From contig JAIPHJ010000002.1 of the NCBI GenBank assembly GCA_021735245.1, positions 26,017 to 90,016 on the forward strand: a DNA stretch of 64,000 nucleotides. Direction: 5' to 3'. Made by a program: the position numbers and the translations under genes. Source of the DNA: Candidatus Bipolaricaulota bacterium (GTDB taxonomy: Bacteria > Bipolaricaulota > Bipolaricaulia > M55B111). Within the stretch, counting starts at the first letter, position 1; each line of letters opens with the position of its first letter. The notes under the pieces were generated by a model. That model saw only the letters and a program-made list of their open reading frames with translations, did not search any database and was not told the origin of the DNA. Positions 8,819 through 46,388 of the stretch are shown here, piece after piece.

Positions 8819-8894
8819 TACGATCGCCCCCTTTAGAAGTATTATAGATAATTTAAAAGGATTGACAAAAGTCGGGGATGTAGATCCACCAATC

Positions 8895-8923
8895 TTGCGA
8901 CATTCCCCTTTCATTCATATAAT
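8895..8923 (+). promoter_or_regulatory. Sigma-70-type promoter for hup
   Basis: TTGCGA (8895-8900), 17-nt spacer, TATAAT (8918-8923), about 25 nt upstream of the hup ATG. Confidence 0.6.
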
Positions 8924-12016: not shown

Positions 12017-12097
12017 ATCTGATCACCACTTAGAGTATGTGAAGGAGTAGTTATATCAGAATTATATGTAGCTATCGTTATAATGAATAATTATTAC

Positions 12098-12826
12098 TCA
12101 ATCTGCCAAGTATCCCTCAGCCTTTTCCATTGCTTTCTCGTGGTTGTCTTGGGCGATACTGTGTAATTCTTCCGTTAGTTCATCCACATCAGTATCTTCT
12201 TTTAAGTTGAGTCCATTAAGCGAGCGTTTGATGTTTTTATAGATGATCTTTAGTTCACCATCATCGAACTCTCTTTTATCCCAAGCGGCAATTAAGGAAA
12301 ACCTGAGTGAGTCTTCATAGGCGTCTTCTTTTCGACGCATTTTTGCCATTTTCAACCTCACTCGATGGCTGCTCAAACCTTCCTTGTTAAGCTCCATGCA
12401 GGCTTTGTTGAAATAACTCCATGCCTTGTCATTTTCGCCTTCCTTTAGGGCATCTTCGCCTAACTTCCGCAACTTTCTACCCTTCTTCTTTTGAACGATT
12501 TTTAGCTGCCTGTAGTACCAAGGCGGTGGATCATGACCTTCTATGGATGCCTGTTTCTCCGCCGCTTTGATAAGTTCCCTTAACAACTTCTCGGCCTCGT
12601 CGTACTTCTCTTCCCTTTTTAGCTGTTTTACCTCTTCAACGTACTGGGTGAAGTGCTTTCCTTTGTAGCTTCCTGCCTTTTCGGCTCGCTCCCTCCGTTT
12701 TTTATACTCTTCAACGTCGATTTTTTCACCTGTGCTGGAACCGGTTTGATCAACTTCTATTTTTTTTCTGCGGCTCCTACTACCACCGAAGATACTTGAC
12801 AGAAGTTCTATAAAAAATTCCCACAT
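12098..12826 (-). CDS. Hypothetical Lys/Glu-rich helical protein
   Basis: 242-aa ORF with no recognisable motif. Co-oriented with, and 37 nt downstream of, 12863-13996. Confidence 0.5.
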   Translation of the reverse strand: MWEFFIELLSSIFGGSRSRRKKIEVDQTGSSTGEKIDVEEYKKRRERAEKAGSYKGKHFTQYVEEVKQLKREEKYDEAEKLLRELIKAAEKQASIEGHDPPPWYYRQLKIVQKKKGRKLRKLGEDALKEGENDKAWSYFNKACMELNKEGLSSHRVRLKMAKMRRKEDAYEDSLRFSLIAAWDKREFDDGELKIIYKNIKRSLNGLNLKEDTDVDELTEELHSIAQDNHEKAMEKAEGYLAD

Positions 12827-25817: not shown

Positions 25818-27923
25818 ATGGGTTTTTCCGATCACGACTGTCACAACTTAATTGAAAACCTCCCCGAAGCTCTCTTTCTCGAGGACCTCCAGGGCAATAT
25901 TCTTGCCGTAAACAGTAAGGCCTGTGAAATACTGGGTTACACCAGGGAAAAGTTGATGGGAATGTCGGTTGAAGACATAGTGCCCGAAGGTGAACCATTA
26001 TTCTTGCCCGGTCGGGTCGACAAAGCGAAGAGGTCGGATAACCCACTTGAATCAGTAACTGTACGGAAAGACGGAACGAAAGTTCCGGTGGAGCTTAAAG
26101 GTAAGATATTAGAAATAGGGGAAGGAGAAAAAATTCTGGTCAGTCTAAGGGATATAAGTAAGCGAAAAGAAAAAGAGGAATCCGTACAGGAAAGTGAGGA
26201 GAAATATAGGACAATATTCGAATCAGCTGGCGACGCCATTTTCATGATGAAGAATAGTACTTTCGTGGATTGTAACAGGAAAACTCTGGAACTATTTGGC
26301 TGCGACCGGGACGAGTTGGTGGGTAATCCACCCTGGAAGTTTTCTCCTGAAGAGCAACCTGACGGCAGGAGTTCAAAAGAAAAAGCTCGAGAAAAGATTC
26401 AGAGGGCTCTCACTGGGGAACGCCAGTTCTTCGAGTGGGTCCACGAGAAGCTCGACGGTACGCCGATACCGACGGAAGTGAACCTGACTAGCTACGAGGT
26501 TGACGGGGAAAAGTTCTTAATGGCTATCGTCAGGGACGTTACTGAGAGGAAAGAAACGGAAAAAGAGTTGAAGCGGGCCAACGAGAAATTGGAAAAAAGT
26601 CGAGAAAGGTACCGCAGTTATTTTGAAAAATTAGGAGACGCGATCTTCATCACCAAAGCGGGAGGAGAGGACCACGGACAAATTATGGAAGTAAACTCCA
26701 CCGCCATAGACCAGACAGGCTACTCCCGGGAGGAATTGCTGGGAATGAATATCGAGGACGACCTGGCTATAACTCCGAATCGGCTGGTGGGATACATGGA
26801 TAATTATAAGACACTGGATGATGAGGAGATGATCAATTTCGTGGAGAGGAAGAGGAAAAAAGACGGAACGGAGTACTGGACGGAAGTCGTAGTGACCCAG
26901 ATTGAGTACGAAGGAAAGAACGCGGCACTATCGATTAACCGAGACATAACCGAACGCAAGCGGACTCAAGAAGCACTGAACGAAGAACGAAACAAGTTAA
27001 GAAGTCTTCACGATGCGGTGGACGATATTCAGCGTCAGGACACGGAAGAAGGGGTTGCCCGGACCGCGGTAAAAGTTGCGGAGCGGATGCTAGACTTCGA
27101 GATATGTGACATTTCCGTGGTGGAAGGCGAATACATTGTAACCATAGCCAGCTCGGCCGGAATTGGTCAAGACCAGGATACAAAATTTAAGATCACGGAA
27201 GGACTCGCTGGAAAGACTTTCAGGACGGGAGAAACCATCTGGGGCGATGATATTTCGGATAACCCTGATGCAAAGCCGATCGACGGCGATTTTAAAGCTT
27301 TTATCAGCGTACCCATAGGAGAAATAGGGGTTTTTCAGGTGATTTCCCGGGAGGAAGGAAGCTTCGACGAGGGAGACGTAGAACTGGCAGAGATACTTGC
27401 CGGTCACCTGAGGGAGGAGTTAAGGCGGGTCCGCCTGGAGAAGCAATTGAGACAGCAGGCCATCCGCGATCCCTTAACTGACCTCTACAACAGAAGATAC
27501 TTCAACGAATCTCTCCAGAAAGAGGCAGAGAAGTGCAAAAGGTATAACACCTCGCTTGCTTTCTTAATGATTGACGTAAACAGGTTCAAAGAAATTAATG
27601 ACCGCTATACTCATCAGATAGGGGACAGGGTGTTAAAAGAGGTGGCCGAATTGCTGCAGGAGAACGTAAGAAGTGCAGATACCGTGGTGAGATACGGCGG
27701 AGACGAGTTTTTAGTAATGATGCCCGAAACGTACGGGGAGATAGAGAACACCGAAGACAGGTTAAAAGAGGAATTGTCTCGCTGGAACGATCGGTCGGAT
27801 ATCCTCGATTTTCCCCTTACGTTGGCCATGGGTGTAGCCCACTGGAAACCAGACAGGGATAAGGACGTGGAAGAGGCCCTGAAAGAAGCGGACAGGAGAA
27901 TGTACAGGGATAAAGAGAAGTAA
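25818..27923 (+). CDS. PAS-PAS-PAS-GAF-GGDEF diguanylate cyclase
   Basis: 701-aa ORF with repeated PAS patterns. GGDEF site RYGGDEF with RxxD I-site (RSAD) 5 residues upstream. C-terminal ~420 aa visibly similar (by eye) to 44643-46388. Confidence 0.9.
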   Translation: MGFSDHDCHNLIENLPEALFLEDLQGNILAVNSKACEILGYTREKLMGMSVEDIVPEGEPLFLPGRVDKAKRSDNPLESVTVRKDGTKVPVELKGKILEIGEGEKILVSLRDISKRKEKEESVQESEEKYRTIFESAGDAIFMMKNSTFVDCNRKTLELFGCDRDELVGNPPWKFSPEEQPDGRSSKEKAREKIQRALTGERQFFEWVHEKLDGTPIPTEVNLTSYEVDGEKFLMAIVRDVTERKETEKELKRANEKLEKSRERYRSYFEKLGDAIFITKAGGEDHGQIMEVNSTAIDQTGYSREELLGMNIEDDLAITPNRLVGYMDNYKTLDDEEMINFVERKRKKDGTEYWTEVVVTQIEYEGKNAALSINRDITERKRTQEALNEERNKLRSLHDAVDDIQRQDTEEGVARTAVKVAERMLDFEICDISVVEGEYIVTIASSAGIGQDQDTKFKITEGLAGKTFRTGETIWGDDISDNPDAKPIDGDFKAFISVPIGEIGVFQVISREEGSFDEGDVELAEILAGHLREELRRVRLEKQLRQQAIRDPLTDLYNRRYFNESLQKEAEKCKRYNTSLAFLMIDVNRFKEINDRYTHQIGDRVLKEVAELLQENVRSADTVVRYGGDEFLVMMPETYGEIENTEDRLKEELSRWNDRSDILDFPLTLAMGVAHWKPDRDKDVEEALKEADRRMYRDKEK

Positions 27924-33405: not shown

Positions 33406-35196
33406 ATGGCCGAAACCTACAAAAGAGACGAGCTGGAAGATAGATTCAAGTGGAACCTGGAAAGTATCTACGAATCCGACGATGAGTGGGAAGAAGAGTT
33501 CGGAGACGTCGAGAAACTGCTGACGGAGTTCGACCGATATCAGGGGAAAGTGGTGGAAAGTGGGGAGACCCTGCTGGATGTCCTGGATTTGCGGGAGAAG
33601 GTCTTCAGAAAAGTTGACAGTCTCTTTGCCTATGCCAGAATGAGAAGCGACGAAGACACCAGAAACCAGACCTATCAGGCCATGAATTCTCGAGCCCGAG
33701 GTCTACACTCCAGCGCGGAGTCGGCCGCCAGTTTTATCGAACCCGAAATCCAATCCTCTTCGAAGGAAGAAATCGAGGAACTAATTGTCGGTAATTCGGA
33801 GCTGGAAACGTACCGTCATTACCTGGAAGACGTGCTCAGGCTGAAACCTCACACGAGGAGTGCCGAGGTGGAGGGACTCGTGGCCGATCTCGAGGAGGTA
33901 CTGGCCGCCCCCGGAGAAATTTACAATTACCTGACCAATGCCGACCTGGAGTTTCCGGAAGTGGACGATCCGGACGGGGGGAAGGTCAAAATAACGCTGA
34001 GCAATTTTGTGAACCTGTTGAAGAGGGACGAAAGGGAGTTCAGACAGGAAGTCTACGAAGAATTCTTCGACCGATTCGAGGAGCTGAGCAACACGGTCTC
34101 CGTCTCCTACGAGAACAGCGTCAAGACGGACAATAAACTGGCAGGGATCAGGAACTACGATTCGGCGCGAGAGAAGTCCATGGATCAAAACAACATTCCG
34201 GTAGAGGTTTACGATAATCTTGTAAGAGTGGTTGAAGACAACCTCGACCTGCTTCACAAACATCTCCGGCTAAAGAGGGAAGCTTTGGGGAGCGAGGAGC
34301 TCAGAATGTGGGACGTCTATGCTTCCATGGCGGAACCCGAGATCCCGGACATCCCTTACGAGGAAGCGAAAGACTACGTGCTGGAGGCTGTCGAAGTTCT
34401 GGGAGACGATTACCGGGACCAGATAGAGCAGGGATTCCGGTCTCGCTGGATCGACGTGTACGAGACCCCGGCCAAGCGTGCCGGAGCTTACAGCGGCGGT
34501 GCTTACGATACCCAGCCGTTTATCCTCATGAACTACGAGGGGGATATCTCTTCTCTCTACACGCTGGCTCACGAGCTCGGCCATTCCATGCATTCCAAGC
34601 TAACCTCCGAACACCAGCCCTACGTCTACGGGGACTACTCGATATTCGTCGCGGAAGTCGCCAGTACTCTGCACGAAGCCCTGCTCACGGAGCACCTGCT
34701 GGAAAGCGAGTCTGACCCGGACTTTAGACTTCACCTGCTGGATCACTTTCTGGAATCGTTCCGGACTACACTCTTCCGTCAGACCCTGTTCGCTCACTTC
34801 GAGCACGAAGTTCACGAAAAGGTCAGCGCGGGAGAAGGACTTACTTTCGATAGGTTGAACGAGCTGTTCGGGACCCTGAAAAACGAGTATTACGCACCCG
34901 CGGTGGTCGACGATAGAATTGAATTCGAATGGATGAGAATCCCTCATTTCTACAGGGCTTATTACGTCTATCAGTACAGTACGGGCGTTAGCGCTTCTCT
35001 TGCCCTGTCAGAAAAGGTCATGGAGGAAGGAGAATCGGCCGTGGATCGGTACCTGGATCTCCTGAAGACCGGCTCGAGCAAGTATCCTCTCGAATCTCTG
35101 CGGGATGCGGGAGTCGACATGAGAGAACCGGGACCCGTCGAGCGGGCCCTGTCGACCTACGAGAAGTATCTCGACCGGATGGAGGAACTTATTTAG
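33406..35196 (+). CDS. pepF: Oligoendopeptidase F (M3B)
   Basis: 596-aa ORF with the HELGHSMH zinc motif and typical M3B length and architecture. Confidence 0.9.
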   Translation: MAETYKRDELEDRFKWNLESIYESDDEWEEEFGDVEKLLTEFDRYQGKVVESGETLLDVLDLREKVFRKVDSLFAYARMRSDEDTRNQTYQAMNSRARGLHSSAESAASFIEPEIQSSSKEEIEELIVGNSELETYRHYLEDVLRLKPHTRSAEVEGLVADLEEVLAAPGEIYNYLTNADLEFPEVDDPDGGKVKITLSNFVNLLKRDEREFRQEVYEEFFDRFEELSNTVSVSYENSVKTDNKLAGIRNYDSAREKSMDQNNIPVEVYDNLVRVVEDNLDLLHKHLRLKREALGSEELRMWDVYASMAEPEIPDIPYEEAKDYVLEAVEVLGDDYRDQIEQGFRSRWIDVYETPAKRAGAYSGGAYDTQPFILMNYEGDISSLYTLAHELGHSMHSKLTSEHQPYVYGDYSIFVAEVASTLHEALLTEHLLESESDPDFRLHLLDHFLESFRTTLFRQTLFAHFEHEVHEKVSAGEGLTFDRLNELFGTLKNEYYAPAVVDDRIEFEWMRIPHFYRAYYVYQYSTGVSASLALSEKVMEEGESAVDRYLDLLKTGSSKYPLESLRDAGVDMREPGPVERALSTYEKYLDRMEELI

Positions 35197-35285
35197 CTGT
35201 CAGCAACCCGCCCGGCGGGCGGAGTTTGATATAAAATCGCGGAAAACCAGCCTATTAACTTCCTGGTGTTCCCGGGAATCTTGCT

Positions 35286-35325
35286 AAAAATAGATAAGCG
35301 GGAGCGTGAAAACTCCCGCTTATCT
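35286..35325 (-). terminator. Rho-independent terminator of the ferritin gene
   Basis: AGATAAGCGGGAG pairs with CTCCCGCTTATCT (13-bp stem, 8-nt loop), followed on the minus strand by ATTTTTAG. Confidence 0.75.
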
Positions 35326-35353
35326 TGTCTAGTTTTAACTATAACGGTTCTAG

Positions 35354-35854
35354 TTATTCGTCGGTTGCCTGGCGCCTTCCCAGTGCGTTGTCCAGTGTCA
35401 GAAGACCCGGACCACTTTCTCCCACCATTTTTATCTTGTCGACTATGGCTTCCGTCGATGCCTCTTCCTCGACCTGCTCTTCGACGAACCATTCCAGCAT
35501 GTTTCTGGTTGCCTTGTCTTCCTTCTCTTCAGCCAGATCCACCAGTTCGTCTATCTTCCTTGTGATGTACTGTTCGTGCTCGTAAGCGTCTTCGAAGGCC
35601 TCCTGAGGAGAATTCCAGTCGGCTTTTGGCTCCTCGATAGGCTGGAGCTTCACCCGACCTCTCCGCTCGTTGAGATAGCGAAAGATACGCATCGCGTGTT
35701 CCATCTCTTCCTGCGCCTGCATCTCCATCCAGGTGGCAAATCCGTCTAAAGACTCTGATTCAAAGTAAGCTTCCATCGACAGGTAAATGTAGTAAGAATT
35801 CAACTCTTCATTGATCTGGTCGTTTAACCTTTTTTCGACTGCTTTGTCTATCAT
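35354..35854 (-). CDS. ftn: Non-haem ferritin
   Basis: 166-aa ORF. LNDQINEELNSYYIYLSMEAYF...QEEMEHAMRIF...EHEQYIT are ferroxidase-centre Glu/His motifs. Confidence 0.9.
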   Translation of the reverse strand: MIDKAVEKRLNDQINEELNSYYIYLSMEAYFESESLDGFATWMEMQAQEEMEHAMRIFRYLNERRGRVKLQPIEEPKADWNSPQEAFEDAYEHEQYITRKIDELVDLAEEKEDKATRNMLEWFVEEQVEEEASTEAIVDKIKMVGESGPGLLTLDNALGRRQATDE

Positions 35855-36298
35855 TGGTTCCTCCTGGTTAATTTTTGGTTTTAGTATTTTAGACCTCTAA
35901 TTTGCAACGATACTATTCTAATAGAAATAGTTATTTATTACAACTCATTATTAGTTCAAATTTCGATATTGTCCGGGAAGTCGAGCTATTTTTCCAACAC
36001 TAATCGAATTTAGCCAGGAATTTCGGTCGAATTGTATAGTAGCGAGTTTGAATGGTTCTTTGTAAGAAAAGTTGGCATTTTTGATCATATTTAATCTAGG
36101 TTAAGTAAAAAATTAAATCATATTATGGATGAAAATTTCTATCAGTTATAAAATACAATCAAACATTTTCCCGGGGTTTGAAGTTGGGTTCGTTAAAACT
36201 TCAGCCGGCTGAACGTTCTAGGTCCGATTCGGCGCCAAATTATAGACTAGCTTATCGAAAATGCCGAATATTTCGTCTTTGCAAAATAGGAGGTAAAA

Positions 36299-36709
36299 AT
36301 GCAAAAGACGAAACTTGCCCTCGTTTCATTGTTGAGTTTGCTTGTCGTACTGGCGCCAGTCTCTAACGCGCTGGCACAAACTAAAAAGGTAAAAAAACCC
36401 GTAAGGGTAGGGGAGGAATTAGCACAGAAGCAGAGAAATTACACTGAGGGGTCCGAATTTAAGAAGATAGAGGAGTTAGGTGGAAAAAAAGTTGGCGATG
36501 ATACCCTTGATCGAAAAGAGGGTGAAGGGCCATTTGGGGCTATGATTGGGGCAGTAGCAGGTGCGATAGTTGGTTTGGGTGCTAGTTTGGCAAATGGTAT
36601 TACAAACCATCATGGTGCCGCTAGGATGGCCAGGGACGTAGTTGTAACAACAGCAACGTGTGGCGCTGCGGGGGCAACGATTGGTGGTCTCGCTACTGGA
36701 CCAACTTAA
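36299..36709 (+). CDS. Sec-exported glycine-zipper protein with an internal double-glycine motif (candidate precursor)
   Basis: AGGAGG SD. Signal peptide ..LAPVSNALA-QT. EFKKIEELGG-KK. C-terminal GAMIGAVAGAIVGLGASLANG...CGAAGATIGGLATGPT. Confidence 0.75.
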   Translation: MQKTKLALVSLLSLLVVLAPVSNALAQTKKVKKPVRVGEELAQKQRNYTEGSEFKKIEELGGKKVGDDTLDRKEGEGPFGAMIGAVAGAIVGLGASLANGITNHHGAARMARDVVVTTATCGAAGATIGGLATGPT

Positions 36710-36720
36710 AAAGTCCATTA

Positions 36721-36770
36721 AAGAAAAGGCAGATAAAGGAGGTAAACACCAATTTTATCTGCCTTTTCTT
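36721..36770 (+). terminator. Strong hairpin (17-bp perfect stem) between the precursor gene and downstream genes; terminator or attenuator
   Basis: AAGAAAAGGCAGATAAA (36721-36737) pairs with TTTATCTGCCTTTTCTT (36754-36770), 16-nt loop. The 3' arm is T-rich. Confidence 0.7.
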
Positions 36771-36784
36771 CTTAAGGAAAGGAG

Positions 36785-37345
36785 GTGATAAAAATTAAAT
36801 ATCTATTTGCGGGACTGGCAGAGATTGTTGAGATGGGTATTTGGGGGGCTGTTATTGCTCCTTTCGCAATCTGGGGATTAGGAGAAATTCTCTGGGTTGG
36901 GCTTTTCTTTCCTTTAGTGAAGGCGTTGAAGGATATAAGCGAGAAAAGAGAAAGGGCGAGAATAGAATGCAAACACGCTTTAATTTTAGGATGCCGTAGG
37001 GTCAAAAGCTATAAATGGGAGATTTTTTTCGCCTCAGTTGGTGGAGTATTAATTTTGGACATTTACTGGATGTTTATAAATTTAGCAGATGATTTCTTAC
37101 CTTCGTTCTTATACGTGTTAATATTATTCATTAGTACTTTTTTGCTTTGCATTCTACTTTTCTCTAAGGGCAACGGTATTATGTCAAGTTCCCCTGCTCC
37201 TACCTTAAGGAGTATGAAATTTATTTGGGGTGGGTTTATGAATCCTTTTGACGAAACCAAAGTCTCTAAAATGAGGGATGTGGTGATTGAGGTGAACGAA
37301 AATATAATGGAGTCTTCGAGTTCTTGTCGATTTGGCAGGTGCTAA
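36785..37345 (+). CDS. Small polytopic membrane protein, paralogue of 37896-38387
   Basis: 186-aa ORF (exact start uncertain) with about four hydrophobic segments. C-terminal SMKFIWGGFMNPFDE corresponds to SVKYIFWGVSNPFRD in the paralogue. Confidence 0.65.
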   Translation: MIKIKYLFAGLAEIVEMGIWGAVIAPFAIWGLGEILWVGLFFPLVKALKDISEKRERARIECKHALILGCRRVKSYKWEIFFASVGGVLILDIYWMFINLADDFLPSFLYVLILFISTFLLCILLFSKGNGIMSSSPAPTLRSMKFIWGGFMNPFDETKVSKMRDVVIEVNENIMESSSSCRFGRC

Positions 37346-37440
37346 AGTTGAACAGTTACTGGTGCAGCATCCATTGATAGGGAAGTATGAATAGGAACTA
37401 TGTTGGCGAATTTTGGTAGGAAATATGTGCTGGATCAGGG

Positions 37441-37788
37441 TTGTGCACCTTGGGCCATCTAAATATACCGATAAGATTCATTTGTGTTTTGGGTAAATTA
37501 ATAAATAGTTTGCAAAATCATGCAGAGTTTTTCATTGGAGCGGTAATTTCCATTGTCGTTCCCTCTATTCTAATACTTCTGATTATATCGGATTTCTCTT
37601 TTACGGAGATACTTCAATATATTTATGCAAGAAAGTTTGTGGTTTTAAGTTTAGCAGTTTTAAACTCGGTCTTTAACAACTTAGATGGTGACCAAATATT
37701 TTTACTGAGGGAAAATATTTTACCCGGTGCTTTAATAGGTGCAGGAGTGGGTTATCTAATTGTTCAAGTTCTTTCAGAAAGTTATTAA
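37441..37788 (+). CDS. Small polytopic membrane protein
   Basis: 115-aa ORF with a non-ATG start and three hydrophobic segments. Confidence 0.45.
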   Translation: MCTLGHLNIPIRFICVLGKLINSLQNHAEFFIGAVISIVVPSILILLIISDFSFTEILQYIYARKFVVLSLAVLNSVFNNLDGDQIFLLRENILPGALIGAGVGYLIVQVLSESY

Positions 37789-37895
37789 GATGTAGAAGTC
37801 CGCGTTTAATTAGAAAAAGTTGATGGTTCAAGCGTATTTCGTAGAGGTGAAAATACCCTTCCTAAGTTACTTTTTTAATTCCAAACAGGATAATT

Positions 37896-38387
37896 ATGAT
37901 TCCAATATTAATTGAGTGGGGCAAAGAAACGAATTGGTTTCTGTTCTTCTTCCCCCCTTTCCTCATTTGGTTTCTAGCAGGGGCTACATTATTGGGTTTT
38001 CCACCCGTTCTGAGAAGACTGTCTTCGGACAGGGGTTTCGTCCAGAGAGCTAAGTTTAGCCTAAAAAGAGCCTTTTTCTATAGATGGGAACTTCTATTTA
38101 CGGCAATTAGCTTGACACTATTGACTTATATTTATCATATTCTACTTGTTCTAGGAAGAAATCTGCTTTCAATATTTCCGGATACTTTGGCATCGACTTT
38201 AGGTTTTTTATTGCTGCTATTGGTTTTTTTGGCCAAGTTAGGAAAGATCGCCCAGCGACCTCCCACTAAGTCACCTTTAAAAAGCGTGAAATACATTTTT
38301 TGGGGGGTTTCCAATCCATTTCGGGATTACCCAACATATAGAGTATTAGATGAGGTAAATAATGAGAAAAGTAGAAATAAGGCATGA
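37896..38387 (+). CDS. Small polytopic membrane protein, paralogue of 36785-37345
   Basis: 163-aa ORF. Stop overlaps the next start (ATGA, 38384-38387). Confidence 0.65.
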   Translation: MIPILIEWGKETNWFLFFFPPFLIWFLAGATLLGFPPVLRRLSSDRGFVQRAKFSLKRAFFYRWELLFTAISLTLLTYIYHILLVLGRNLLSIFPDTLASTLGFLLLLLVFLAKLGKIAQRPPTKSPLKSVKYIFWGVSNPFRDYPTYRVLDEVNNEKSRNKA

Positions 38388-39094
38388 GGGCTACAGAAGG
38401 AATGATAATGGAACACTTAAATGATTGGGGATGGTTGAGCGGGGTATTAATCTTTTCTGCGCTAACTTTCATTACGTCATTTCTCTTCTCTATTTCGACC
38501 TACGCCTGGCCCGTCGATTCCTACCAGGAATTACGCTACGAACACGTACGGGGCCAGAATACCCTCTCCAGCTGTGGACCAGCCTCTCTGGCAACTTTGT
38601 TTGCAGAATTCTACGGAATGGAAACCGGAGAAAAAGAGATAACCGAGCTAGTCAAACCGTATTTAGAGAAAGAAATTGAGAAGTTAAAAGAGGGAAAATT
38701 ACCTGAAGGTGGGGTCTCAATGCTGGACTTGAAAAAAGTAAGCCAGGAGTTAGAAATTCCCGCGAGGGGCTATAAGATTCCGAAACGAAAAGTGTTTTCC
38801 ATAATGAGAAAGCTTAAAACCCCTCTATTGGTTCATCTTGATAAACCAGAAGATCACTTCGTCCTGGGTGTCGCGGGTTTCCACGGCCAGATTGTTCTAG
38901 CGGACCCCTCCTGGGGCATCCGTTCGTTGGGTAAAAAAGAATTTTTCAACAAATGGGATGGACTGATACTGGCTTTTTCTCCCCCCACGAAATATAAGAA
39001 TTGGGCCCATAGAGTCATTAAGAAGGTGAGGCAACGGGCCAAACAGAGGGATAGAACACAGACTCTTTCCCGGAGGTTTCTATGGGACCGCTGA
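38384..39094 (+). CDS. Stand-alone, membrane-anchored or exported C39-like cysteine peptidase
   Basis: N-terminal hydrophobic segment WLSGVLIFSALTFITSFLFSI. Gln-Cys in GQNTLSSCGPASLATLFAEFYG, His in PEDHFVLGV, Asp in IVLADPSWG. No ABC domain. Confidence 0.8.
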   Translation: MRATEGMIMEHLNDWGWLSGVLIFSALTFITSFLFSISTYAWPVDSYQELRYEHVRGQNTLSSCGPASLATLFAEFYGMETGEKEITELVKPYLEKEIEKLKEGKLPEGGVSMLDLKKVSQELEIPARGYKIPKRKVFSIMRKLKTPLLVHLDKPEDHFVLGVAGFHGQIVLADPSWGIRSLGKKEFFNKWDGLILAFSPPTKYKNWAHRVIKKVRQRAKQRDRTQTLSRRFLWDR

Positions 39095-39855
39095 AGCCGG
39101 TCAAAACCCAGGTAGTTTTAGCTTTCCTTCTTGTTCTTCTTATTTTAGCTGTCGGAACCGTTCAAGGTAAGGCAAATGATAGAATAAATCCACTGCGGTT
39201 CGGAAAAGACCGGAAAGCCTGGCAACTTACCCTCAATTTTTCCAGGTATATGGATAGTCTTACTGTCCGGACCAGGGATTCGACGGGATTATGGGAGAAA
39301 GAAAAGAAAATTGACGGTACTTCTTACAGCCTGGAGAGTTCGTTTGAACTGAATGAGATAATTGGCTTTAGAGGTAGTTTTTCTTATCGTACTGATTCCA
39401 TAAAATCGGAGGCGACAAATCTCTGGACGGGCGTGAAGGAAACCAGCGAGGAGACGTCGGGCCAGTTCGGAGGAGCGTCGTTTAAAATTAAGGTAAGTAT
39501 CTGGGAAAATTCTGAGATCAAGTCTCACTTTCTGATTCCCGTACTGGGTGGCTCGGCAGGTGCCGGCTTCGTATGGTCAAGAGATCCCGTAATGGTGTTT
39601 CCGAAATTCGCTATCACCGGTGATGGATTCGACATGAATACGGGTGTAAGCTTCGTGGCGAATTCGAAAATAGCGATTACCGGTCAAATGTCCTTTAGCC
39701 AGGAGGAAAATGGTTCTGTTGTCGGTTTCGGGGGAGGATTAGTTTACCGGGACGGAGAATACGATGGCGTCCAGGTATCGGCGTCATTGATGAGAGGGGA
39801 TTCCACTCAAGTCTCAGTTGAGATCGGCCTGAGTTACGGCCAGGAAAAAGAATAA
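39082..39855 (+). CDS. Exported beta-strand-rich protein (possible outer-membrane barrel)
   Basis: 257-aa ORF with a signal peptide and alternating beta pattern. Overlaps the upstream gene by 13 nt. Confidence 0.6.
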   Translation: MGPLKPVKTQVVLAFLLVLLILAVGTVQGKANDRINPLRFGKDRKAWQLTLNFSRYMDSLTVRTRDSTGLWEKEKKIDGTSYSLESSFELNEIIGFRGSFSYRTDSIKSEATNLWTGVKETSEETSGQFGGASFKIKVSIWENSEIKSHFLIPVLGGSAGAGFVWSRDPVMVFPKFAITGDGFDMNTGVSFVANSKIAITGQMSFSQEENGSVVGFGGGLVYRDGEYDGVQVSASLMRGDSTQVSVEIGLSYGQEKE

Positions 39856-39914
39856 TTTTATTTAAGACGATAATTTTTTATACTTCAGTAAGGTTCTTAT
39901 CCGGGAGGTAAGAT

Positions 39915-41879
39915 ATGAGAGAAACGTGGACTATCTCTTCAAAAAATTTATTGGTAATTTTGTCACTTAGTATTATTTTAGTCCTTTCCGGCTCAGCAAC
40001 CTTTGCAGGGCCTCAACCCGCTGAAACCATCCTGGAAAAGGCGCCGTCTCGAGACGAGTATCCCGATTCCGACGCCGTGATAATGCTGGATAAAGGAGTG
40101 GTAGAAGTCGGGTCGAAGGCCGGGAAAACCATGATGATTACCAGGCAAATAAAGGTTTTCAACAAGGAGGGTAGACAAAAATTCGGAGAAGTGGAGATCC
40201 CTTATCTCGCCCCATCGGGCAAACCGAAGTTAAACTGGGTGCGGACAATAACACCCGAAGGCAAAGTGGTAAAGCCGGACAAAGATGACATGAGGGACGT
40301 TACTCCAGCGAGACTTCAGCAGTATCCGATGTATTCCGACTTAAAGAAGAAGGTAATTAGCATGCCCGGATTGACCAACGGGGCGATAATTGAATATTCG
40401 TATACTTTAAAACCCAAGAGGTTCTTTCTAAAAGGAGATTTCAGTTCAAGCTGGAGGTTTAGATACAAACAGCCGGTTTTGAAATCTCATTTCGAGGTTT
40501 CCTTTCCCTATGAGATGAACGTTAGCTGGACCGATTTTGATGCGAATCTACCTCCGGTAGTAGAACAAGAGAACGACCGAAAGTCTCTCGTATGGAAACG
40601 AGAGGACTTGTCAAAAATAATTGAAGAACCAGGCATGCCACCGATTTACCGGATTTCGGAGAGGGTGTTAGTTACATCAATAGAAAGCTGGGAGTACTAC
40701 TCGAAGCAGTTCTGGAACCTGGCAAAAAATAGAGCAAACCCCGATAAAGCAATAAGAAGTAAAGTCAAAGAGTTAACCAAAGGACTAAAAGGCAAAGAAG
40801 AAAAGGTTCGGGCCCTCTACAATTACGTAGCGACAAAAATCAGGTACGTAGCTATCGAGCTTGGACGAGGTAAGATACAGCCTCACAAGGCTGGCGACGT
40901 ATTCCATAACAAGTACGGTGATTGTAAGGACAAAGCTACACTGCTGATAAGCATGTTAAAGGTAGCCGGGATAAAGGCCCATCCGGTTTTGATCCTTTCC
41001 GGCCTCAACGAGAAAACCAGGTTCGAGGAGCCGCCGCCTGGAAGAGGGCTAAATCACGCCATAGTAGCTGTTGAAATGAAAGGAGGACTCAAGTTTCTCG
41101 ACCCAACCTGCGACGTATGCCCCTATGAGTATCTTCCAGACACCGACAGGTCAAAGAAAGCTCTGGCGATCATACCCAGGAAAGATGACGTGGGCAGAAT
41201 AGTCGAGATGGACAAATTCAATCCGGAAAAAACCAGAGTAAGAGTCGATCAAGAAGTGGAGGTTAGCGAAGAAGGAGATCTGAATACGAGTATAGAAATC
41301 TCCCACTCCGGGTATTACAGCTACTACCTCAAATCTTTCCTCGAGTCCTATTCCAAAGTAAGACAGGAACGGATCTATAGAGGCATATTAAGCCAGCACG
41401 AGTCGGGAGCCCAGCTCAAAGACTTTAGCCATACGGATCTGGAGAAAATTGACGAGAGGTTAACTATTGAACTGTCTTATGAAAAGAAGGGGTTTGCAGA
41501 CACTTTGGGTGATTCGTTGATATTCCAGACTCCCCCGACTCTCAGAATTCCTCTTGATAGAAGTTACGATAAATTTGCCAGCCTGCCAGTGGAAGAAAGG
41601 AAATATCCATTACAGATGATTCCGGCTATCTTTATTGATGAGGTAACTATTTCTTTCCCTGAGGACAGGGAGATAGTAACTCCGGACGGTGTTGATATTG
41701 AAACGGAATGGGTGTCGTATAATTCATCTTACAAAGTTACGGGGAAAGGAGAACTGACTGTTACCAGGACATTAGTGAAGAAGAAATCCTTGTTGCCGCT
41801 GGAGGGTTACCCTGAATTCAAAAACCTGGTGAACAAGATGAGGAAAGACCAACAAAGTAATTTCCAGATAAAAGGGTAA
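39915..41879 (+). CDS. DUF3857 / transglutaminase-like / DUF3858 exported protein
   Basis: 654-aa ORF with a signal peptide. Transglutaminase core YGDCKDKATLLISMLKVAGI, NHAIVAVE, FLDPT (Cys-His-Asp). Confidence 0.8.
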   Translation: MRETWTISSKNLLVILSLSIILVLSGSATFAGPQPAETILEKAPSRDEYPDSDAVIMLDKGVVEVGSKAGKTMMITRQIKVFNKEGRQKFGEVEIPYLAPSGKPKLNWVRTITPEGKVVKPDKDDMRDVTPARLQQYPMYSDLKKKVISMPGLTNGAIIEYSYTLKPKRFFLKGDFSSSWRFRYKQPVLKSHFEVSFPYEMNVSWTDFDANLPPVVEQENDRKSLVWKREDLSKIIEEPGMPPIYRISERVLVTSIESWEYYSKQFWNLAKNRANPDKAIRSKVKELTKGLKGKEEKVRALYNYVATKIRYVAIELGRGKIQPHKAGDVFHNKYGDCKDKATLLISMLKVAGIKAHPVLILSGLNEKTRFEEPPPGRGLNHAIVAVEMKGGLKFLDPTCDVCPYEYLPDTDRSKKALAIIPRKDDVGRIVEMDKFNPEKTRVRVDQEVEVSEEGDLNTSIEISHSGYYSYYLKSFLESYSKVRQERIYRGILSQHESGAQLKDFSHTDLEKIDERLTIELSYEKKGFADTLGDSLIFQTPPTLRIPLDRSYDKFASLPVEERKYPLQMIPAIFIDEVTISFPEDREIVTPDGVDIETEWVSYNSSYKVTGKGELTVTRTLVKKKSLLPLEGYPEFKNLVNKMRKDQQSNFQIKG

Positions 41880-41914
41880 GCTGGAATTTAATCTATCTGC
41901 TCAAAAAGAGTCCG

Positions 41915-41950
41915 AATTACCCCGTCGGTTGAAACCAAGGCGGGGTAATT
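41915..41950 (+). terminator. Hairpin after the operon (possible terminator)
   Basis: AATTACCCCG pairs with CGGGGTAATT, 16-nt loop, followed by TATCTTATT. Confidence 0.5.
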
Positions 41951-42080
41951 TATCTTATTCAAGTAAGTTCACAATAGTGGAGACTCTCACGAATAATTTT
42001 CGATTTACCATATACTATACTCTTCTTACCGACAAAGAGCTGATTTGATTTACTGATCCGGTCATTTATAATTCTAATAC

Positions 42081-42155
42081 GGGCGAATAGCTCAGTGGGA
42101 GAGCACCTGACTCACATTCAGGAGGTCGCAGGTTCGAGTCCTGCTTCGCCCACCA
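42081..42155 (+). tRNA. tRNA-Val(CAC), CCA encoded
   Basis: GGGCGAA-TA-GCTC-AGTGGGA-GAGC-A-CCTGA-CTCACAT-TCAGG-AGGTC-GCAGG-TTCGAGT-CCTGC-TTCGCCC-A-CCA. All four stems pair. Confidence 0.93.
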
Positions 42156-42424
42156 CCCTCGGCTAGAATCCTATTGTCGGTTAACTACAAATAAGTTTTA
42201 TCTTTCGCCTGACTCCGTTTTAGAACACGAGTGAGGGTAACCAGGCGTCCATATTTTCGTCGGAAAATTCCTACTTTCAACCACTTCCCATAGTTCAAAC
42301 GGAGCGTTTTATTATAACTCTGAAAAAGAACTACTTTTCGTAAAATCCAGTCTAGATAAAGAACAAATTGATATTTCAATTTATAAATAAAGCTTCAACC
42401 GGGGTTAAAATCTTTTTTGAACTG

Positions 42425-42557
42425 GTCCTTGCTTACGATTTTCGTACCACCTTACGCACTAATCTCCACTAAGAACAATATTTCCCATTAACATTCCAAT
42501 TTCACCTGCCAAATTTGGATAGATTCCCCGTTTGTTCTATAATCCGAGTGTTCAAGA
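42425..42557 (+). promoter_or_regulatory. Repeated promoter module, copy 1
   Basis: Block GTCCTTGCTTACGATTTTCGTACCACCTTACGCACTAATCTCC. TTGGAT (42515-42520), 17 nt, TATAAT (42538-42543). About 500 nt upstream of 43042. Confidence 0.6.
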
Positions 42558-43041
42558 ATTCCAGAAGAATTACCAAAGGGGGCAATGCAATCCTCCGAGG
42601 AGGAATTACCTGGATCATTCTGCTATTTAACTTTGGAGATTGAGTGTTAAAACTAAAAATCCAAAGCTTTTTGGCTTGTTTATCTGAATATTTGAGTCGG
42701 AAGATTACTCGAAGTTGGCCCTCTTTTTACTTCGAACAAAAGAAACCTGCACAAGTCAAGAAGCTTGCCCCCAGGTACAACTGAAGAACATTGAGGTAGC
42801 TCTGGGGATTTGAAGCACGAAAATCTTGCCAGTCCTCAATTGAGAGTAGACACCTGGTTACGAACAAAGTACGAATTTCACGGCAAGAATCTATAAGAAA
42901 TCCCCACCGTTTATGAGGTACTTGCTACGAAAACCTATTGGGACAAGCACTTAGGTTTACATTCTTTCCTTGTTCTTGTAATATATTTTACATTTCAACA
43001 GGATAGTCTCGTATTAGTATTAGGAGTATAATTTACTAAAG

Positions 43042-44646
43042 ATGTTAAGTCTTTATCAATCCGTTCTAGCTTTTACCATCTTCGTGCTGGTCCTGACCGC
43101 GATTTACGTGGGAAGGCACTACCCTAAGCCGGGAACCCTACCTATGATGTTGGCCCTCATAGCCGTGGTATTCTGGGACCTCGGTTATCTCTTAAGCCTG
43201 GGGGCGGAGGGTCTGTCCACTAAGATCTTCTGGACAAAATTTCAATATCTCGGTTACGAATTCGTTCCCCCTCTCTGGTTTCTCGTCATCTGGCGCTATA
43301 CCCAGCACCGTATAAGAAATCACCGCTCGCTTCTGCTGATATTCGCCCTCCCCCTTCTCACTATAGCCTTTGCTTGGACGAACCAGTTTCACGGGTTATT
43401 GTGGCAGGAAGCGGCCGTGCATGGTCATTTAGGTATTTCAGTTTTAGAAACCGGCCGCGGTCCCTGGTGGCTGGTCGATACATTATATAGCTACAGTTTG
43501 ATCTCGGGAGGGGTATACCTGCTTTTGCGGGACACGATTGGACTCCCGAGCATCTACAAAAAACAGGCGCTGGTTCTTTTAGCTGGAGTCTTAGTGCCGA
43601 TGGCCGGTAACCTCTCCTACTTAATGGGATTGACCCACCACTTAGACCTCGCTCCTCTGACTTTTAGTATTACTGGACTGGTCTTTGCCTGGGGGGTTTC
43701 TCGTTACAGACTTTTCGGGGTGGTTCCCGTTGCTAGGTCGAAGCTTTTGGACGAGATGAATTTGGGAACCCTCGTCATGGATAAAGAAGGGTTGCTTCTT
43801 TCCGTGAATCCCGCCGCCTGCTCCGTTTTGGGCTGCGGCCAAGCTGATATCGGAGAACCTATTGACGAACTCCTTGTGGACCACCCGAAGTTGCTGGATT
43901 ACCTTCGTCGTCGAGAGAAGACCCAGGAGGAGGTAGCTATTTCTACAGGAGGCGAGACGAGTTATTTTGACTTCAAATTAACCCCCCTTGAGTCCGAGAG
44001 AGGTTATACTTCCGGTTGGCTGGCTCAGTTTTACGAGATTACCTCCCGGGTTCAAGCAGAGCAGCGTCTGCGGAAAGTCACAATAGAGACCATGGAAGCA
44101 TTGGCCAAAACTGTGGAGGCCAAGGATGCCTATACTAGAGAACATCTGGACAGGGTGGAAAAGCATGCTCTAGCGGTTGCCGAGCGGTTAGATATTTCCG
44201 AAAAACGGAGAGAGCAACTAAGATTTGCGGCGGTATTACATGACATTGGTAAGGTCCGCGTTCCGGACGGGATCTTGAATAAGCAGGACGGACTAACAGA
44301 TGAGGAATACGACCAAATAAAAGACCATGCGGAGGCAGGGGAAAGCATAGTTGGTCAGGTAAGTTACCTCCAGCAAGCGGCCACCATCATCGGTCAGCAC
44401 CACGAGAAATTCGACGGCTCGGGATACCCCAAAGGGTTGAAGGGCGATGAAATTACGCTGGAAGCCAGGATTCTTTCGGTGGTCGATGCCTACGACGCCA
44501 TGAGATCCGACCGGCCCTATCGGGACGCTTTACCCAGAGAGGTTGCAATAAAAGAGCTAAAGGAGAATAAGGGGACCCAGTTCGACCCGGAAGTGGTCGA
44601 TATCCTGCTCGAGATGATTGAAGCAAGGGAGGCAGAGTTAGAATGA
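43042..44646 (+). CDS. Membrane sensor (7TM HisKA_7TM-like N-domain) - PAS-like - HD-GYP phosphodiesterase
   Basis: 534-aa ORF with 6-7 N-terminal TM helices. HDIGK and HHEKFDGSGYP motifs. Confidence 0.85.
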   Translation: MLSLYQSVLAFTIFVLVLTAIYVGRHYPKPGTLPMMLALIAVVFWDLGYLLSLGAEGLSTKIFWTKFQYLGYEFVPPLWFLVIWRYTQHRIRNHRSLLLIFALPLLTIAFAWTNQFHGLLWQEAAVHGHLGISVLETGRGPWWLVDTLYSYSLISGGVYLLLRDTIGLPSIYKKQALVLLAGVLVPMAGNLSYLMGLTHHLDLAPLTFSITGLVFAWGVSRYRLFGVVPVARSKLLDEMNLGTLVMDKEGLLLSVNPAACSVLGCGQADIGEPIDELLVDHPKLLDYLRRREKTQEEVAISTGGETSYFDFKLTPLESERGYTSGWLAQFYEITSRVQAEQRLRKVTIETMEALAKTVEAKDAYTREHLDRVEKHALAVAERLDISEKRREQLRFAAVLHDIGKVRVPDGILNKQDGLTDEEYDQIKDHAEAGESIVGQVSYLQQAATIIGQHHEKFDGSGYPKGLKGDEITLEARILSVVDAYDAMRSDRPYRDALPREVAIKELKENKGTQFDPEVVDILLEMIEAREAELE

Positions 44647-46388
44647 AGGGAGAAGAAAGAGGTTTACCCCTTTCCGGGGAAACGTTCAGACAGTTATTTG
44701 AGGACGGGCCTGAACCGACCGTTCTCCTTGACGAAAACGGCCGTATCCGGGACCTCAACCGCCGGTTTGAGGAGGTCTTTGGCTACGAGCTGGAAGAAGC
44801 AAAGGGGAAAGGGATTAACAGCCTAATAGTTCCCGAAAGGTTAATCGAAGAAGCAGAGGATCTCGACCAAAAGAGCAAACGGGGCTACCTGAACTACGAA
44901 ACGGTAAGGGAAGGCAAGGAGGGGGAAATTCCCGTTTCGGTCTCCGCCACCCCGGTTACCGTGGAAGAAGGGACTTACGTGATGGCTACCTACAGAGACG
45001 TCACGGAACGGAAGGAGGCCAAAGAAAGGCTAAAATTGACTCGGCGGGAATTAAAAGAAAGCAAAGAAAGGTACCAAAGGTACTTCGAAGAGCTGGGAGA
45101 CGCCATCTTTGTCCTGAAGCTCGGCGGGGCAAACCACGGGGAGATCCTGGACGCAAATACGACCGCCGTAAAACAGACCGGCTACTCTAAGGAGGAGCTA
45201 ATCGGGATGAATATCAGAGAAGATCTGGTTGTCAAATCACCGGCTATGGGCTACGAAGAAGCCGACGATAGGCTAGCAAAAGGAGAGACAATAAGCTTTA
45301 CCGAACAGAAGATAAGCAAGCACGGGACCCCCTACTGGACCGAAGTGGTGGTAACCCCGATAGAGTACGAAGGGAAGGAGGCAGCGCTTTCTATCAATAG
45401 GGATATTACCGAAAGAAAACGAGCCCAGGAGTCTTTAAAAAAGGAAAGAGAGAAGTTAAGACAACTCCACGATGCCGTAGATATCCTACAGCAGCAGGAT
45501 ACTGAAGAGGAGGTCCTCCAGACCGCCGTCGAGGTAGCGGAAAAGATTCTGGATTTTCATATCTGTGCAATCGGACTTGTGGAGGGGGACTACGTCATTC
45601 CCAATGCGACCTCTTCCGGTATAACTCCTGACGATACGACAAAATTCAAGCTCGGAGAAGGAATAACCGGGAAGTCGGTACAGCAGGGGCGATCTATCTG
45701 GGGAGACGACCTCAGAGACTATCCGGAAGCGAAGCCGACGAATCCGGAATTCAAAGCCTTTATCAGTAGCCCGATCGGAGACCTGGGGAACTTCCAAATA
45801 GTCTCCAAAAAGGTGGGAAGTTTTACGGAAAGAGACGTGGAGCTGACCGAAATCCTCGCTGACCACCTCCAGGAAGAGCTTCAGCGAGTCCGGCTGGAGA
45901 AGGAGTTAAGAGAACAAGCAATTAGAGATCCGTTAACCGGCCTGTACAATCGCAGGTATTTCAACGAAATCCTCCAGCAAGAAGCGGAGAAATGTAAACG
46001 ATATGACAGATCCTTGGCTTTCGTAATGATGGACGTAAACAGGTTTAAGGAGATTAACGACCACTACTCTCACCAGAAAGGAGATCGGGTATTAAAAGAA
46101 GTGGCTAACCTGCTTGAAGAAAACGTCAGAAAAGCGGACACTCTGGTACGCTACGGTGGAGATGAATTTCTGGTCATGATACCTTACCCAGATGGGAAAT
46201 CAGAAAACGTTATAACGAGATTGAGGGATAAGCTCCAGAAGTGGAACGAGCAATCGAATCTGCTGGATTCCCCCCTCACTCTGGCAATGGGCATGGCTCA
46301 CTGGAGTCCCGACCAAAATAGAGACGTAGAAGGGGCTTTAAAGGAAGCGGACAAAAAGATGTACGAAGATAAGAAAGACAATAGCTGA
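44643..46388 (+). CDS. PAS-PAS-GAF-GGDEF diguanylate cyclase
   Basis: 581-aa ORF. ATGA overlap with the HD-GYP gene. RYGGDEF with the RKAD I-site. Confidence 0.9.
   Translation: MKGEERGLPLSGETFRQLFEDGPEPTVLLDENGRIRDLNRRFEEVFGYELEEAKGKGINSLIVPERLIEEAEDLDQKSKRGYLNYETVREGKEGEIPVSVSATPVTVEEGTYVMATYRDVTERKEAKERLKLTRRELKESKERYQRYFEELGDAIFVLKLGGANHGEILDANTTAVKQTGYSKEELIGMNIREDLVVKSPAMGYEEADDRLAKGETISFTEQKISKHGTPYWTEVVVTPIEYEGKEAALSINRDITERKRAQESLKKEREKLRQLHDAVDILQQQDTEEEVLQTAVEVAEKILDFHICAIGLVEGDYVIPNATSSGITPDDTTKFKLGEGITGKSVQQGRSIWGDDLRDYPEAKPTNPEFKAFISSPIGDLGNFQIVSKKVGSFTERDVELTEILADHLQEELQRVRLEKELREQAIRDPLTGLYNRRYFNEILQQEAEKCKRYDRSLAFVMMDVNRFKEINDHYSHQKGDRVLKEVANLLEENVRKADTLVRYGGDEFLVMIPYPDGKSENVITRLRDKLQKWNEQSNLLDSPLTLAMGMAHWSPDQNRDVEGALKEADKKMYEDKKDNS

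Follow-up and report, generated by a model that had tools for sequence, protein, structure and literature searches.

The window analysed here is a 64,000-nt stretch from a metagenome-assembled genome (MAG) of Candidatus Bipolaricaulota (Acetothermia), an uncultured salt-lake bacterium, and between positions 36299 and 41879 it carries seven co-oriented open reading frames (ORFs), G1–G7, on the + strand. We propose, with about even confidence, that this cluster is a two-step secretion and maturation module of the Fap type with a new cargo, namely bacteriocin-like peptides accompanied by immunity proteins. The parts of this proposal differ in strength: sequence profiles and structural models make it quite likely that G5 and G6 form a pair of the FapD/FapF type with G1 as its cargo, and a toxin/immunity role of that cargo is possible, at somewhat less than an even chance. 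The new part would be the cargo, and the machinery would be of the already known FapD/FapF type. The original prediction, made by a model from the letters of the DNA, had described seven genes running in the same direction, and all seven ORFs are present on the + strand:

36299–36709, + strand: G1, putative cargo precursor, 136 aa
36785–37345, + strand: G2, small polytopic inner-membrane protein, 186 aa
37441–37788, + strand: G3, small protein of a second family with two transmembrane (TM) segments
37896–38387, + strand: G4, paralogue of G2, 163 aa, three TM segments
38384–39094, + strand: G5, predicted stand-alone exported C39 cysteine peptidase of the FapD type, 236 aa
38555 (Q58), 38573 (C64), 38855 (H158) and 38903 (D174), + strand: catalytic residues of G5, from the alignment of homologues
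39082–39855, + strand: G6, predicted outer-membrane 12-stranded beta-barrel of the FapF type
39915–41879, + strand: G7, predicted exported DUF3857 and transglutaminase-like protein

The G5/G6 pair and its recurrence

G5 matches the Pfam family Peptidase_C39 (PF03412) with 69.1 bits (cut-off 22, E 4e-19), and its residues Q58, C64, H158 and D174, which are invariant in 18 homologues, align to the Q/C/H/D of the ComA peptidase domain (3k8u). The original assignment to C39, based on the ordered Gln, Cys, His and Asp, is borne out by this match, and G5 is predicted to be a catalytically complete member of the family. Its N-terminus exhibits n-, h- and c-regions, and the residue preceding an invariant WPV motif is small in 18 of 18 homologues (mostly Ala); the hydrophobic segment that had been taken for a membrane anchor is present, but looks like a cleavable signal peptide. 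This export signal and the absence of an ABC (ATP-binding cassette) transporter gene from the operon agree with the earlier suggestion that G5 would act as a stand-alone enzyme outside the cytoplasm, and the models of peptidase-containing ABC transporters (PCATs) score only about 20–30 bits on G5.

The best NCBIfam match of G5 is FapD, at 65.5 bits and short of the equivalog cut-off of 330, and G5 is best classified as a subfamily distinct from the FapD equivalog. Comparison by hhalign of the G5 profile with three FapD sequences (the FapD and FapF references were taken from real fap operons of Aeromonas, Polymorphobacter and Cupriavidus) gave 99.5%, E 1e-22 and 33% identity over 150 columns, the pre-catalytic PV.S..E.RY motif included. 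An exhaustive profile search returned 3156 relatives of G5, of which the closest 150 are nearly all stand-alone proteins of about 180–290 aa; the FapD model is matched by all of the 50 next-nearest relatives and the FilB model by 43 of them.

Some further features of the peptidase family were observed. At about residues 83–106 of G5 (38630–38700) there is an acidic helical insertion (KPYLEEEIEKLKEGE) that is found in the hypersaline clade and is missing from the other sub-clade (proteins P0038 and P0039), and all members of the family possess a conserved basic C-terminal tail ending in FLW. One of the related loci (numbered with an L throughout), L029, encodes a stand-alone C39 relative (P0080, 1726–2406) that adjoins a Wzz/GNVR chain-length determinant instead of a barrel; polysaccharide loci, too, thus contain exported C39 proteins of this class. 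In L039, 4.5 kb downstream of the cassette, a further and far larger protein (11888–12684) gives a weak match to Peptidase_C39_2.

G6, originally described as an exported beta-rich protein, is modelled by AlphaFold2 (AF2) with a signal peptide and 12 beta strands (predicted local distance difference test score, pLDDT, 78.6). Its layout is a signal peptide, an invariant NPLR motif and the barrel, with only about 15 residues between the signal peptide and the first strand, and no Pfam family was assigned to it. A Foldseek search of the PDB returned FapF structures as the top matches (5o67/5o65/5o68, E 4e-8, TM-score 0.45–0.48). A first G6 profile matched nothing among the PDB sequences, and the hhalign comparison with three FapF sequences gave 89.5% and E 2e-6; the 135 aligned columns cover the DP and N motifs that are invariant in the family. 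Homology of G6 to FapF is thus probable, not certain.

FapD is a Sec-exported stand-alone C39 protein encoded in the same operon as FapF; in Pseudomonas it resides in the periplasm, and secretion through the 12-stranded FapF depends on its catalytic Cys (PMC5557850). The original prediction had seen in G5 the opposite topology to known double-glycine processing of the PCAT type, and in the cluster a combination with no described counterpart; the former does not hold in view of the periplasmic FapD, and the latter gives way to the homology of G5 and G6 to the FapD/FapF pair. Co-localised fapD and fapF homologues were reported from five further phyla in 2018 (PMC6173800). Bipolaricaulota have been inferred to be Thermotoga-like diderms with Omp-alpha/Omp-beta and without lipopolysaccharide (LPS), so an outer-membrane barrel makes sense in this host.

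The genes of the cluster are real: the ratio of nonsynonymous to synonymous substitution rates (dN/dS) against orthologues is 0.08–0.21 in the six genes in which dS can be estimated (0.13 in G2, 0.17 in G3, 0.19 in G4), and these six genes are therefore under purifying selection. In G1 the synonymous sites are saturated (proportions of differing synonymous and nonsynonymous sites, pS and pN, 0.78 vs 0.28), so no ratio is given. Of the two overlaps originally described, the 13-nt overlap of G5 and G6 is real and a GGAGG ribosome-binding site lies 5' of G6, but the ATGA overlap of G4 and G5 exists only with the G5 start at 38384, and another gene caller starts G5 at 38408 (P0001, 228 aa).

The cluster was found again in about 30 other loci. 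The barrel gene lies directly 3' of the C39 gene in 24 of 24 Bipolaricaulota-type loci where the sequence continues, and of the 20 loci with 0.9 kb or more of upstream sequence, 19 have a G1-like gene 5' of the C39 gene; this arrangement is far beyond chance. The order precursor, small TM protein, C39, barrel is also present in the distant cassettes L032 (36% GC, adjoining minCDE), L034 and L039 (the same locus as L026). Proteins identical or nearly identical to those of the window are filed under Candidatus Bipolaricaulota (Acetothermia), and twelve related genome loci come from records labelled Bipolaricaulota or Acetothermia or, in the case of five third-party annotation (TPA) MAGs, 'uncultured Thermotogae bacterium'. 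It could still be argued that neighbours without a common function form a coincidental operon, as the spacers within G1–G4 measure 75–107 nt and internal promoters are possible; this is highly improbable, since about 30 loci keep the order, their synonymous sites being close to saturation, and since it recurs in unrelated genomic contexts (L007–L010, L032, L039).

Pairs of C39 and barrel genes with no adjoining glycine-zipper precursor were observed in L037/L038 (6001–7464, 'Firmicutes bacterium' MAG, 64% GC) and in L035 (6986–8400); the cargo of these pairs may be encoded elsewhere.

Of the seven-gene operon originally described, the genes are found side by side in many genomes, but G7 is missing from the cassettes of a whole sub-clade and is not part of the core. 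G7 follows G6 in L001–L006, L012, L014, L016 and L023 (the hypersaline sub-clade) and does not in L007–L010, L018–L022, L024, L026, L032 and L035 (the other sub-clade and distant cassettes). It matches DUF3857 (122.6 bits, cut-off 24.6, E 2e-35) and Transglut_core (44.1 bits, cut-off 23, E 3e-11), possesses a signal peptide, and retains intact the Cys-His-Asp core that had been noticed earlier (C337, H381, D396). Residues 89–361 of G7 align with 3KD4, a DUF3857/transglutaminase-like 'putative protease' from Parabacteroides (E 3e-5), with the difference that the Cys is retained in G7 (YGDCKD, aligned with YGTPLE of 3KD4). A literature search returned no functional study of DUF3857 and no link between DUF3857 and C39 systems. 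We treat G7 as an accessory specific to one clade, which may act as a protease or as a cross-linker.

The precursor and the small membrane proteins

G1 consists of three segments:

36299–36376, + strand: signal peptide (aa 1–26), a signal-peptide-like N-terminus ending ALA/Q
36377–36529, + strand: charged pro-region (aa 27–77), a conserved leader of which 19 distinct segments were tabulated
36530–36706, + strand: core (aa 78–136), a predicted two-helix glycine zipper (AF2 helices 78–102 and 107–133)

The signal peptide, charged spacer and Gly/Ala zipper of the original description are all present and support a Sec-type exported precursor. The pro-region includes EFKKIEELGGKK, the tail is Gly/Ala-rich, and the AF2 model of the core is a helical hairpin (pLDDT about 75). 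All precursors exhibit a signal peptide and a charged spacer followed by the pattern F..IE..G[GA]..V....L....G[EKQ]G, and past G77 at least five classes of Gly/Ala-rich core can be distinguished. The C39 proteins of L001 and L011 are the closest to that of the window (78–80% identical), yet their cores are only 19–38% identical to the core of G1; the C39 proteins of L004, L013 and L014 are 59–68% identical, yet these loci have the core class of the window (54–85% identical). L001 encodes two precursors with different cores. The core class is thus decoupled from the phylogeny of the peptidase.

Each precursor gene is directly followed by a gene for a small TM protein, whose family tracks the core class: a G2-like gene follows class-A precursors (the window, L004, L013, L014, L015), a G3-like gene follows class-B precursors (L011, L001), and a gene for a 104-aa protein follows class-C precursors (L007–L010 and others). 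The immunity-like membrane paralogues of the original prediction are to be recognised in G2 and G4 (BLASTP E 3e-8, 27% identity, a common KYI..G..NPF tail), and the small membrane proteins do behave like immunity genes, but G3 belongs to another family. The G2/G4 family is divergent, occurs in long and short forms and shares the juxtamembrane motif R..xY[KR]W[ENT][IL]; G2 is a long form of this Y[KR]W family, with the tail KFIWGGFMNPF and no Pfam or NCBIfam assignment. G4, with a predicted N-out/C-in topology that leaves its basic loop and tail in the cytoplasm, has orthologues in L005, L011 and L014. G3 exhibits a conserved S[DE]FS..E[IY]L motif and is not matched by the hidden Markov model (HMM) of the G2/G4 family; its start is uncertain (TTG candidates at 37441–37510). 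It is 78% identical to the L011 gene directly 3' of the class-B precursor, with related genes in L001 and L014. No cognate precursor accompanies G3 or G4 in the window, and in this sense both are orphans. L011 contains at 8732–8902 a stretch that is not part of a full gene and is similar to the C-terminal end of G2 (61 aa, 39% identity); it looks like a decayed membrane-protein cassette.

The conserved leader, the swapped cores, the co-varying membrane proteins and the orphan genes together appear as the genomic signature of toxin/immunity cassettes, and G2 is a candidate for the cognate immunity partner of the class-A core. Among known families, the Bacteriocin_IIc model matched 2 of 12 precursors, in the core only (best E 0.0015, 18.9 bits, cut-off 27.1). 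Filing the G1-like proteins and 18 small membrane proteins under Pfam/NCBIfam families was tried and rejected, as the matches are sub-threshold and low-complexity.

A glycine-zipper hairpin might also serve the producer's own envelope: after processing it would insert in the outer membrane (the toga) or around G6, in the manner of SlyB/Pcp, and the operon would build or stabilise the envelope. In favour of this rather improbable reading one can cite that G6 is an outer-membrane barrel, that the locus is vertically conserved in the phylum at fixed genomic positions, and that G1 has a weak likeness in Pfam to Gly-zipper_Omp, YMGG and OmpA-type zippers. All these matches, however, are below threshold (the best, Gly-zipper_Omp, reaches 20 bits where 25 are required), G1 has no lipobox, as Cys is missing from its signal-peptide cleavage site, and at least five unrelated core classes among close relatives, with two copies in L001, would not be expected of a housekeeping protein.

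Or perhaps the cluster is a functional analogue of Fap, in which the cores are extracellular fibre or matrix subunits (amyloid-like), exported unfolded through G6 after processing by G5, with the small membrane proteins as handling or chaperone factors? We regard this as unlikely, but of some weight. N/Q-rich imperfect repeats of the FapB/FapC type are found in none of the seven cluster proteins (compared with the Aeromonas, Polymorphobacter and Cupriavidus fap operons), AF2 yields a helical hairpin, and the switching of core classes with a co-varying membrane protein and orphan genes would not be expected of a fibre subunit. The machinery, on the other hand, is homologous to the amyloid exporter FapD/FapF, and a hairpin located 3' of G1 (see below) also fits a highly expressed structural subunit. 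GxxxG-rich hydrophobic segments are in general amyloid-prone. Some microcins are also reported to form biofilm fibres (PMC13188072). Enzymes of cyclic di-GMP (c-di-GMP) metabolism are encoded nearby in the window, but are not kept beside the cluster in other loci.

Processing and expression of the precursor

Two motifs of the G1 leader, both defined by the leader alignment, are candidates for recognition by the peptidase:

36479–36484, + strand: GG of the first motif, F54..I57-E58..G61-G62
36491–36529, + strand: second motif, V65-x4-L70-x4-G75-E76-G77

The original prediction placed the cut at the first motif (EELGG/KK), which is doubtful: among the 19 distinct leaders, positions 61–62 read GG in 13 cases and GA in 3, but VS, GR or DG in the related cassettes L005, L032 and L034, and the invariant motif lies downstream. 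Canonical leaders have hydrophobic residues at -4 and -7, but those preceding G61-G62 are found at -6 and -9. In the second motif V/I/L65, L70 and G75 are invariant across the leaders, and the motif stops exactly at the boundary between the conserved and the variable part. Canonical double-glycine leaders have the form L-S-x-x-E-L-x-x-I-x-G-G, and the V65-x4-L70-x4-G75 spacing (5+5) equals their -12/-7/-2 positions. The second motif also resembles sequences located just after the signal peptides in fap operons, namely VSDAELGKVAGK and ITDYELATMRGG (Polymorphobacter), LADGELAHLRGR (Aeromonas FapE), and VATEKLDDVRGG and VAQARLEESRGG (Cupriavidus); this resemblance is a direct reading, the FapE–FapE alignment being too noisy for a profile comparison with G1. 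Because the second motif is invariant, has leader-like spacing, ends where conservation ends and resembles the Fap sequences, a cut at residues 75–78 appears more likely than one at G61-G62. In the Fap system FapE alone loses its N-terminus (PMC5557850).

These data bear on the view that double-glycine processing here is of a categorically new kind, with an anchored C39 that is unrelated to any described machinery and cuts after G61-G62, and with all seven genes indispensable. A C39 enzyme normally requires small (Gly/Ala) residues at P1/P2, and GG or GA, the latter being a classical double-glycine variant, occupies 61–62 in 16 of the 19 leaders. Such a cut, however, would leave 15 conserved residues on every mature peptide; with the homology of G5/G6 to FapD/FapF, the -6/-9 hydrophobics, the replacements at 61–62 and the many cassettes that lack G7, we consider this view quite improbable.

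Three elements may bear on the expression of the cluster:

36091–36154, + strand: element upstream of the precursor gene, conserved in an alignment of 8 loci
36718–36775, + strand: stem-loop between G1 and G2 (-33 kcal/mol, z -6.5, 0 of 200 shuffles fold as well)
41914–41951, + strand: hairpin with a U-rich tail at the 3' end of the operon (-22.5 kcal/mol, z -4.6)

The upstream element comprises the 9-bp direct repeats TTAATCTAG and TTAAATCAT, 22 bp apart (36091–36121), followed directly by the -10-like TATAAAAT at 36147–36154. The repeat consensus upstream of precursor genes is TTAATC[TC]A[GT]; with the true spacer of 13 nt the pattern occurs once in the window (0.08 expected), and a 12-nt spacer gave no match. 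It is present at the equivalent site in L001 (1283–1321), L004 (5647–5685), L011 (7319–7357) and L013 (5561–5599). The element is probably a regulated promoter, and the repeats look like a site at which a dimeric or tandem regulator binds. Next to the cluster there is no regulator gene, of the LytTR type or otherwise, so the repeats have no assigned binding protein. The Rfam search over 35000–43200 identified only a tRNA, and so no known riboswitch or leader RNA 5' of G1.

Downstream of the precursor gene a perfect hairpin is present in 8 of 8 other loci tested (L001, L004, L007, L011, L013, L014 and L025 among them), with the structure kept and the sequence specific to each locus. It is probably an attenuator or an mRNA stabiliser; a hairpin after the structural gene is a common layout where that gene must out-express the machinery. 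The hairpin at 41914–41951 is a probable operon terminator. A simple pattern scan for terminators performed at chance level and missed both hairpins, the latter because its apical region (a short inner helix and an internal loop) exceeds the loop limit of 3–8 nt.

As to the surroundings, the variable part of the cluster with G1–G4 (36001–38000) has 38.7% GC, compared with 44–51% in the flanking 2-kb intervals, and a strong GC skew of +0.245; these values fit an exchanged cassette or the codon bias of membrane proteins. A tRNA-Val (CAC) lies at 42081–42155, about 200 nt 3' of G7, and is followed by nearly 900 nt without an ORF of at least 120 aa (42160–43040) before the next gene. The flanking c-di-GMP signalling genes (25818–27923, 43042–44646 and 44643–46388) encode two PAS-GAF-GGDEF proteins and one HD-GYP protein with seven TM segments.

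Proposed mechanism and comparison with known systems

According to the proposed mechanism, G1, G5, G6 and G7 would pass the inner membrane through Sec, and the periplasmic G5 would bind the conserved pro-region of G1 and remove it, most probably by a cut at G75-E76-G77 directly before the core and less probably at G61-G62. G6 would then let the freed two-helix glycine-zipper peptide of 59–74 residues through the outer membrane. The most likely role of the peptide would be that of a membrane-active, bacteriocin-like effector. G2, as the partner of the class-A core, and the orphans G3 and G4 would protect the producer. The hairpin after G1 would keep the precursor mRNA in excess over that of the machinery.

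Several points weigh against this mechanism. On the side of the cargo, neither the cores nor the small TM proteins match a bacteriocin or immunity family above threshold, the Fap machinery exports fibre subunits and not toxins, and the core, being hydrophobic, might never leave the inner membrane of the producer. On the side of processing, the residue before the presumed scissile bond of the second motif is E, K or Q, the GG/GA at 61–62 fits the small-residue rule better, and part of the resemblance to the Fap sequences may be the start of an amyloid repeat. As regards the barrel, G6 possesses neither the N-terminal coiled coil nor the linker of FapF, the profile match to FapF reaches only 89.5%, and a broadened G6 profile searched against the PDB sequences had FapF as its top four matches without significance (E 0.37). 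The C39 genes of L017, L035 and L037 have no adjoining precursor (L035 and L037 also have the barrel; the L017 contig stops at the C39 gene), and the role of G7 is left unexplained.

If the cargo is indeed a toxin, the cluster would represent a route of bacteriocin export that needs no ABC transporter. In Bipolaricaulota, whose first cultured representative has only just been obtained according to a late-2025 preprint, it would then be the first antagonism system to be put forward as a candidate. A broader and more tentative idea is that FapD/FapF pairs constitute a general ABC-independent route (Sec, periplasmic C39, 12-stranded barrel) that, in Bipolaricaulota and certain other lineages, serves the export of polymorphic glycine-zipper bacteriocins accompanied by cognate immunity proteins. 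The C39 would read a double-glycine-type leader located after the Sec signal peptide, and in Proteobacteria this motif would also identify the substrates of FapD, FapE among them. The substrate and the recognition sequence of FapD were called undetermined in papers of 2017–2018 (PMC5557850, PMC6173800), and a search of an open-access library for papers from 2019 on returned none naming either. Here the cluster would offer a simpler natural case, in which the peptidase and pore genes adjoin a single small cargo whose leader is sharply conserved, and would reveal the cargo of at least one 'orphan' fapD-fapF pair outside Proteobacteria.

Among known systems, the glycine-zipper outer-membrane proteins (SlyB/Pcp-like) are likewise exported and resemble G1 in two GxxxG-rich hydrophobic segments forming a hairpin, but G1 differs in the lack of a lipoprotein signal, the long removable pro-region and the polymorphic core. 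The class II microcins and bacteriocins exported by PCATs (colicin V with CvaAB-TolC, ComA) share with the cluster the C39 catalytic machinery, a conserved leader with a variable Gly-rich hydrophobic core of 60–90 residues, and a small membrane-protein gene beside the structural gene, along with orphan immunity-like genes. The cluster thus has the class II arrangement (leader, variable core, co-varying membrane protein), in arrangement only: it possesses no ABC transporter or membrane-fusion protein, its peptidase is predicted to be exported instead of cytoplasmic, all 19 related leaders begin with a Sec signal peptide and have the leader-like motifs 25–50 residues behind it, and E or K precedes the proposed cut. 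A literature search for DUF3857 with C39, FilB with C39 and exported stand-alone C39 proteins returned no description of the present combination.

The Fap system of Pseudomonas differs in its FapA, FapB and FapC, which have no counterpart in the cluster; the cargo of the cluster is a predicted helical glycine-zipper hairpin and not an N/Q-rich amyloid repeat protein, small inner-membrane proteins and (in one clade) the DUF3857/transglutaminase protein are added, and the host is a Thermotoga-like diderm without LPS. Both systems, in turn, have a Sec-exported stand-alone C39 and a 12-stranded barrel in one operon, the homologues of G5 and, probably, of G6, and Sec-exported substrates; the motif hydrophobic-x4-L-x4-G followed by G/K/R is found after the signal peptides of Fap operon proteins as well. 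The comparison thereby yields a concrete candidate for the recognition motif of FapD-type peptidases, hydrophobic-x4-L-x4-G followed by G/E/K/R.

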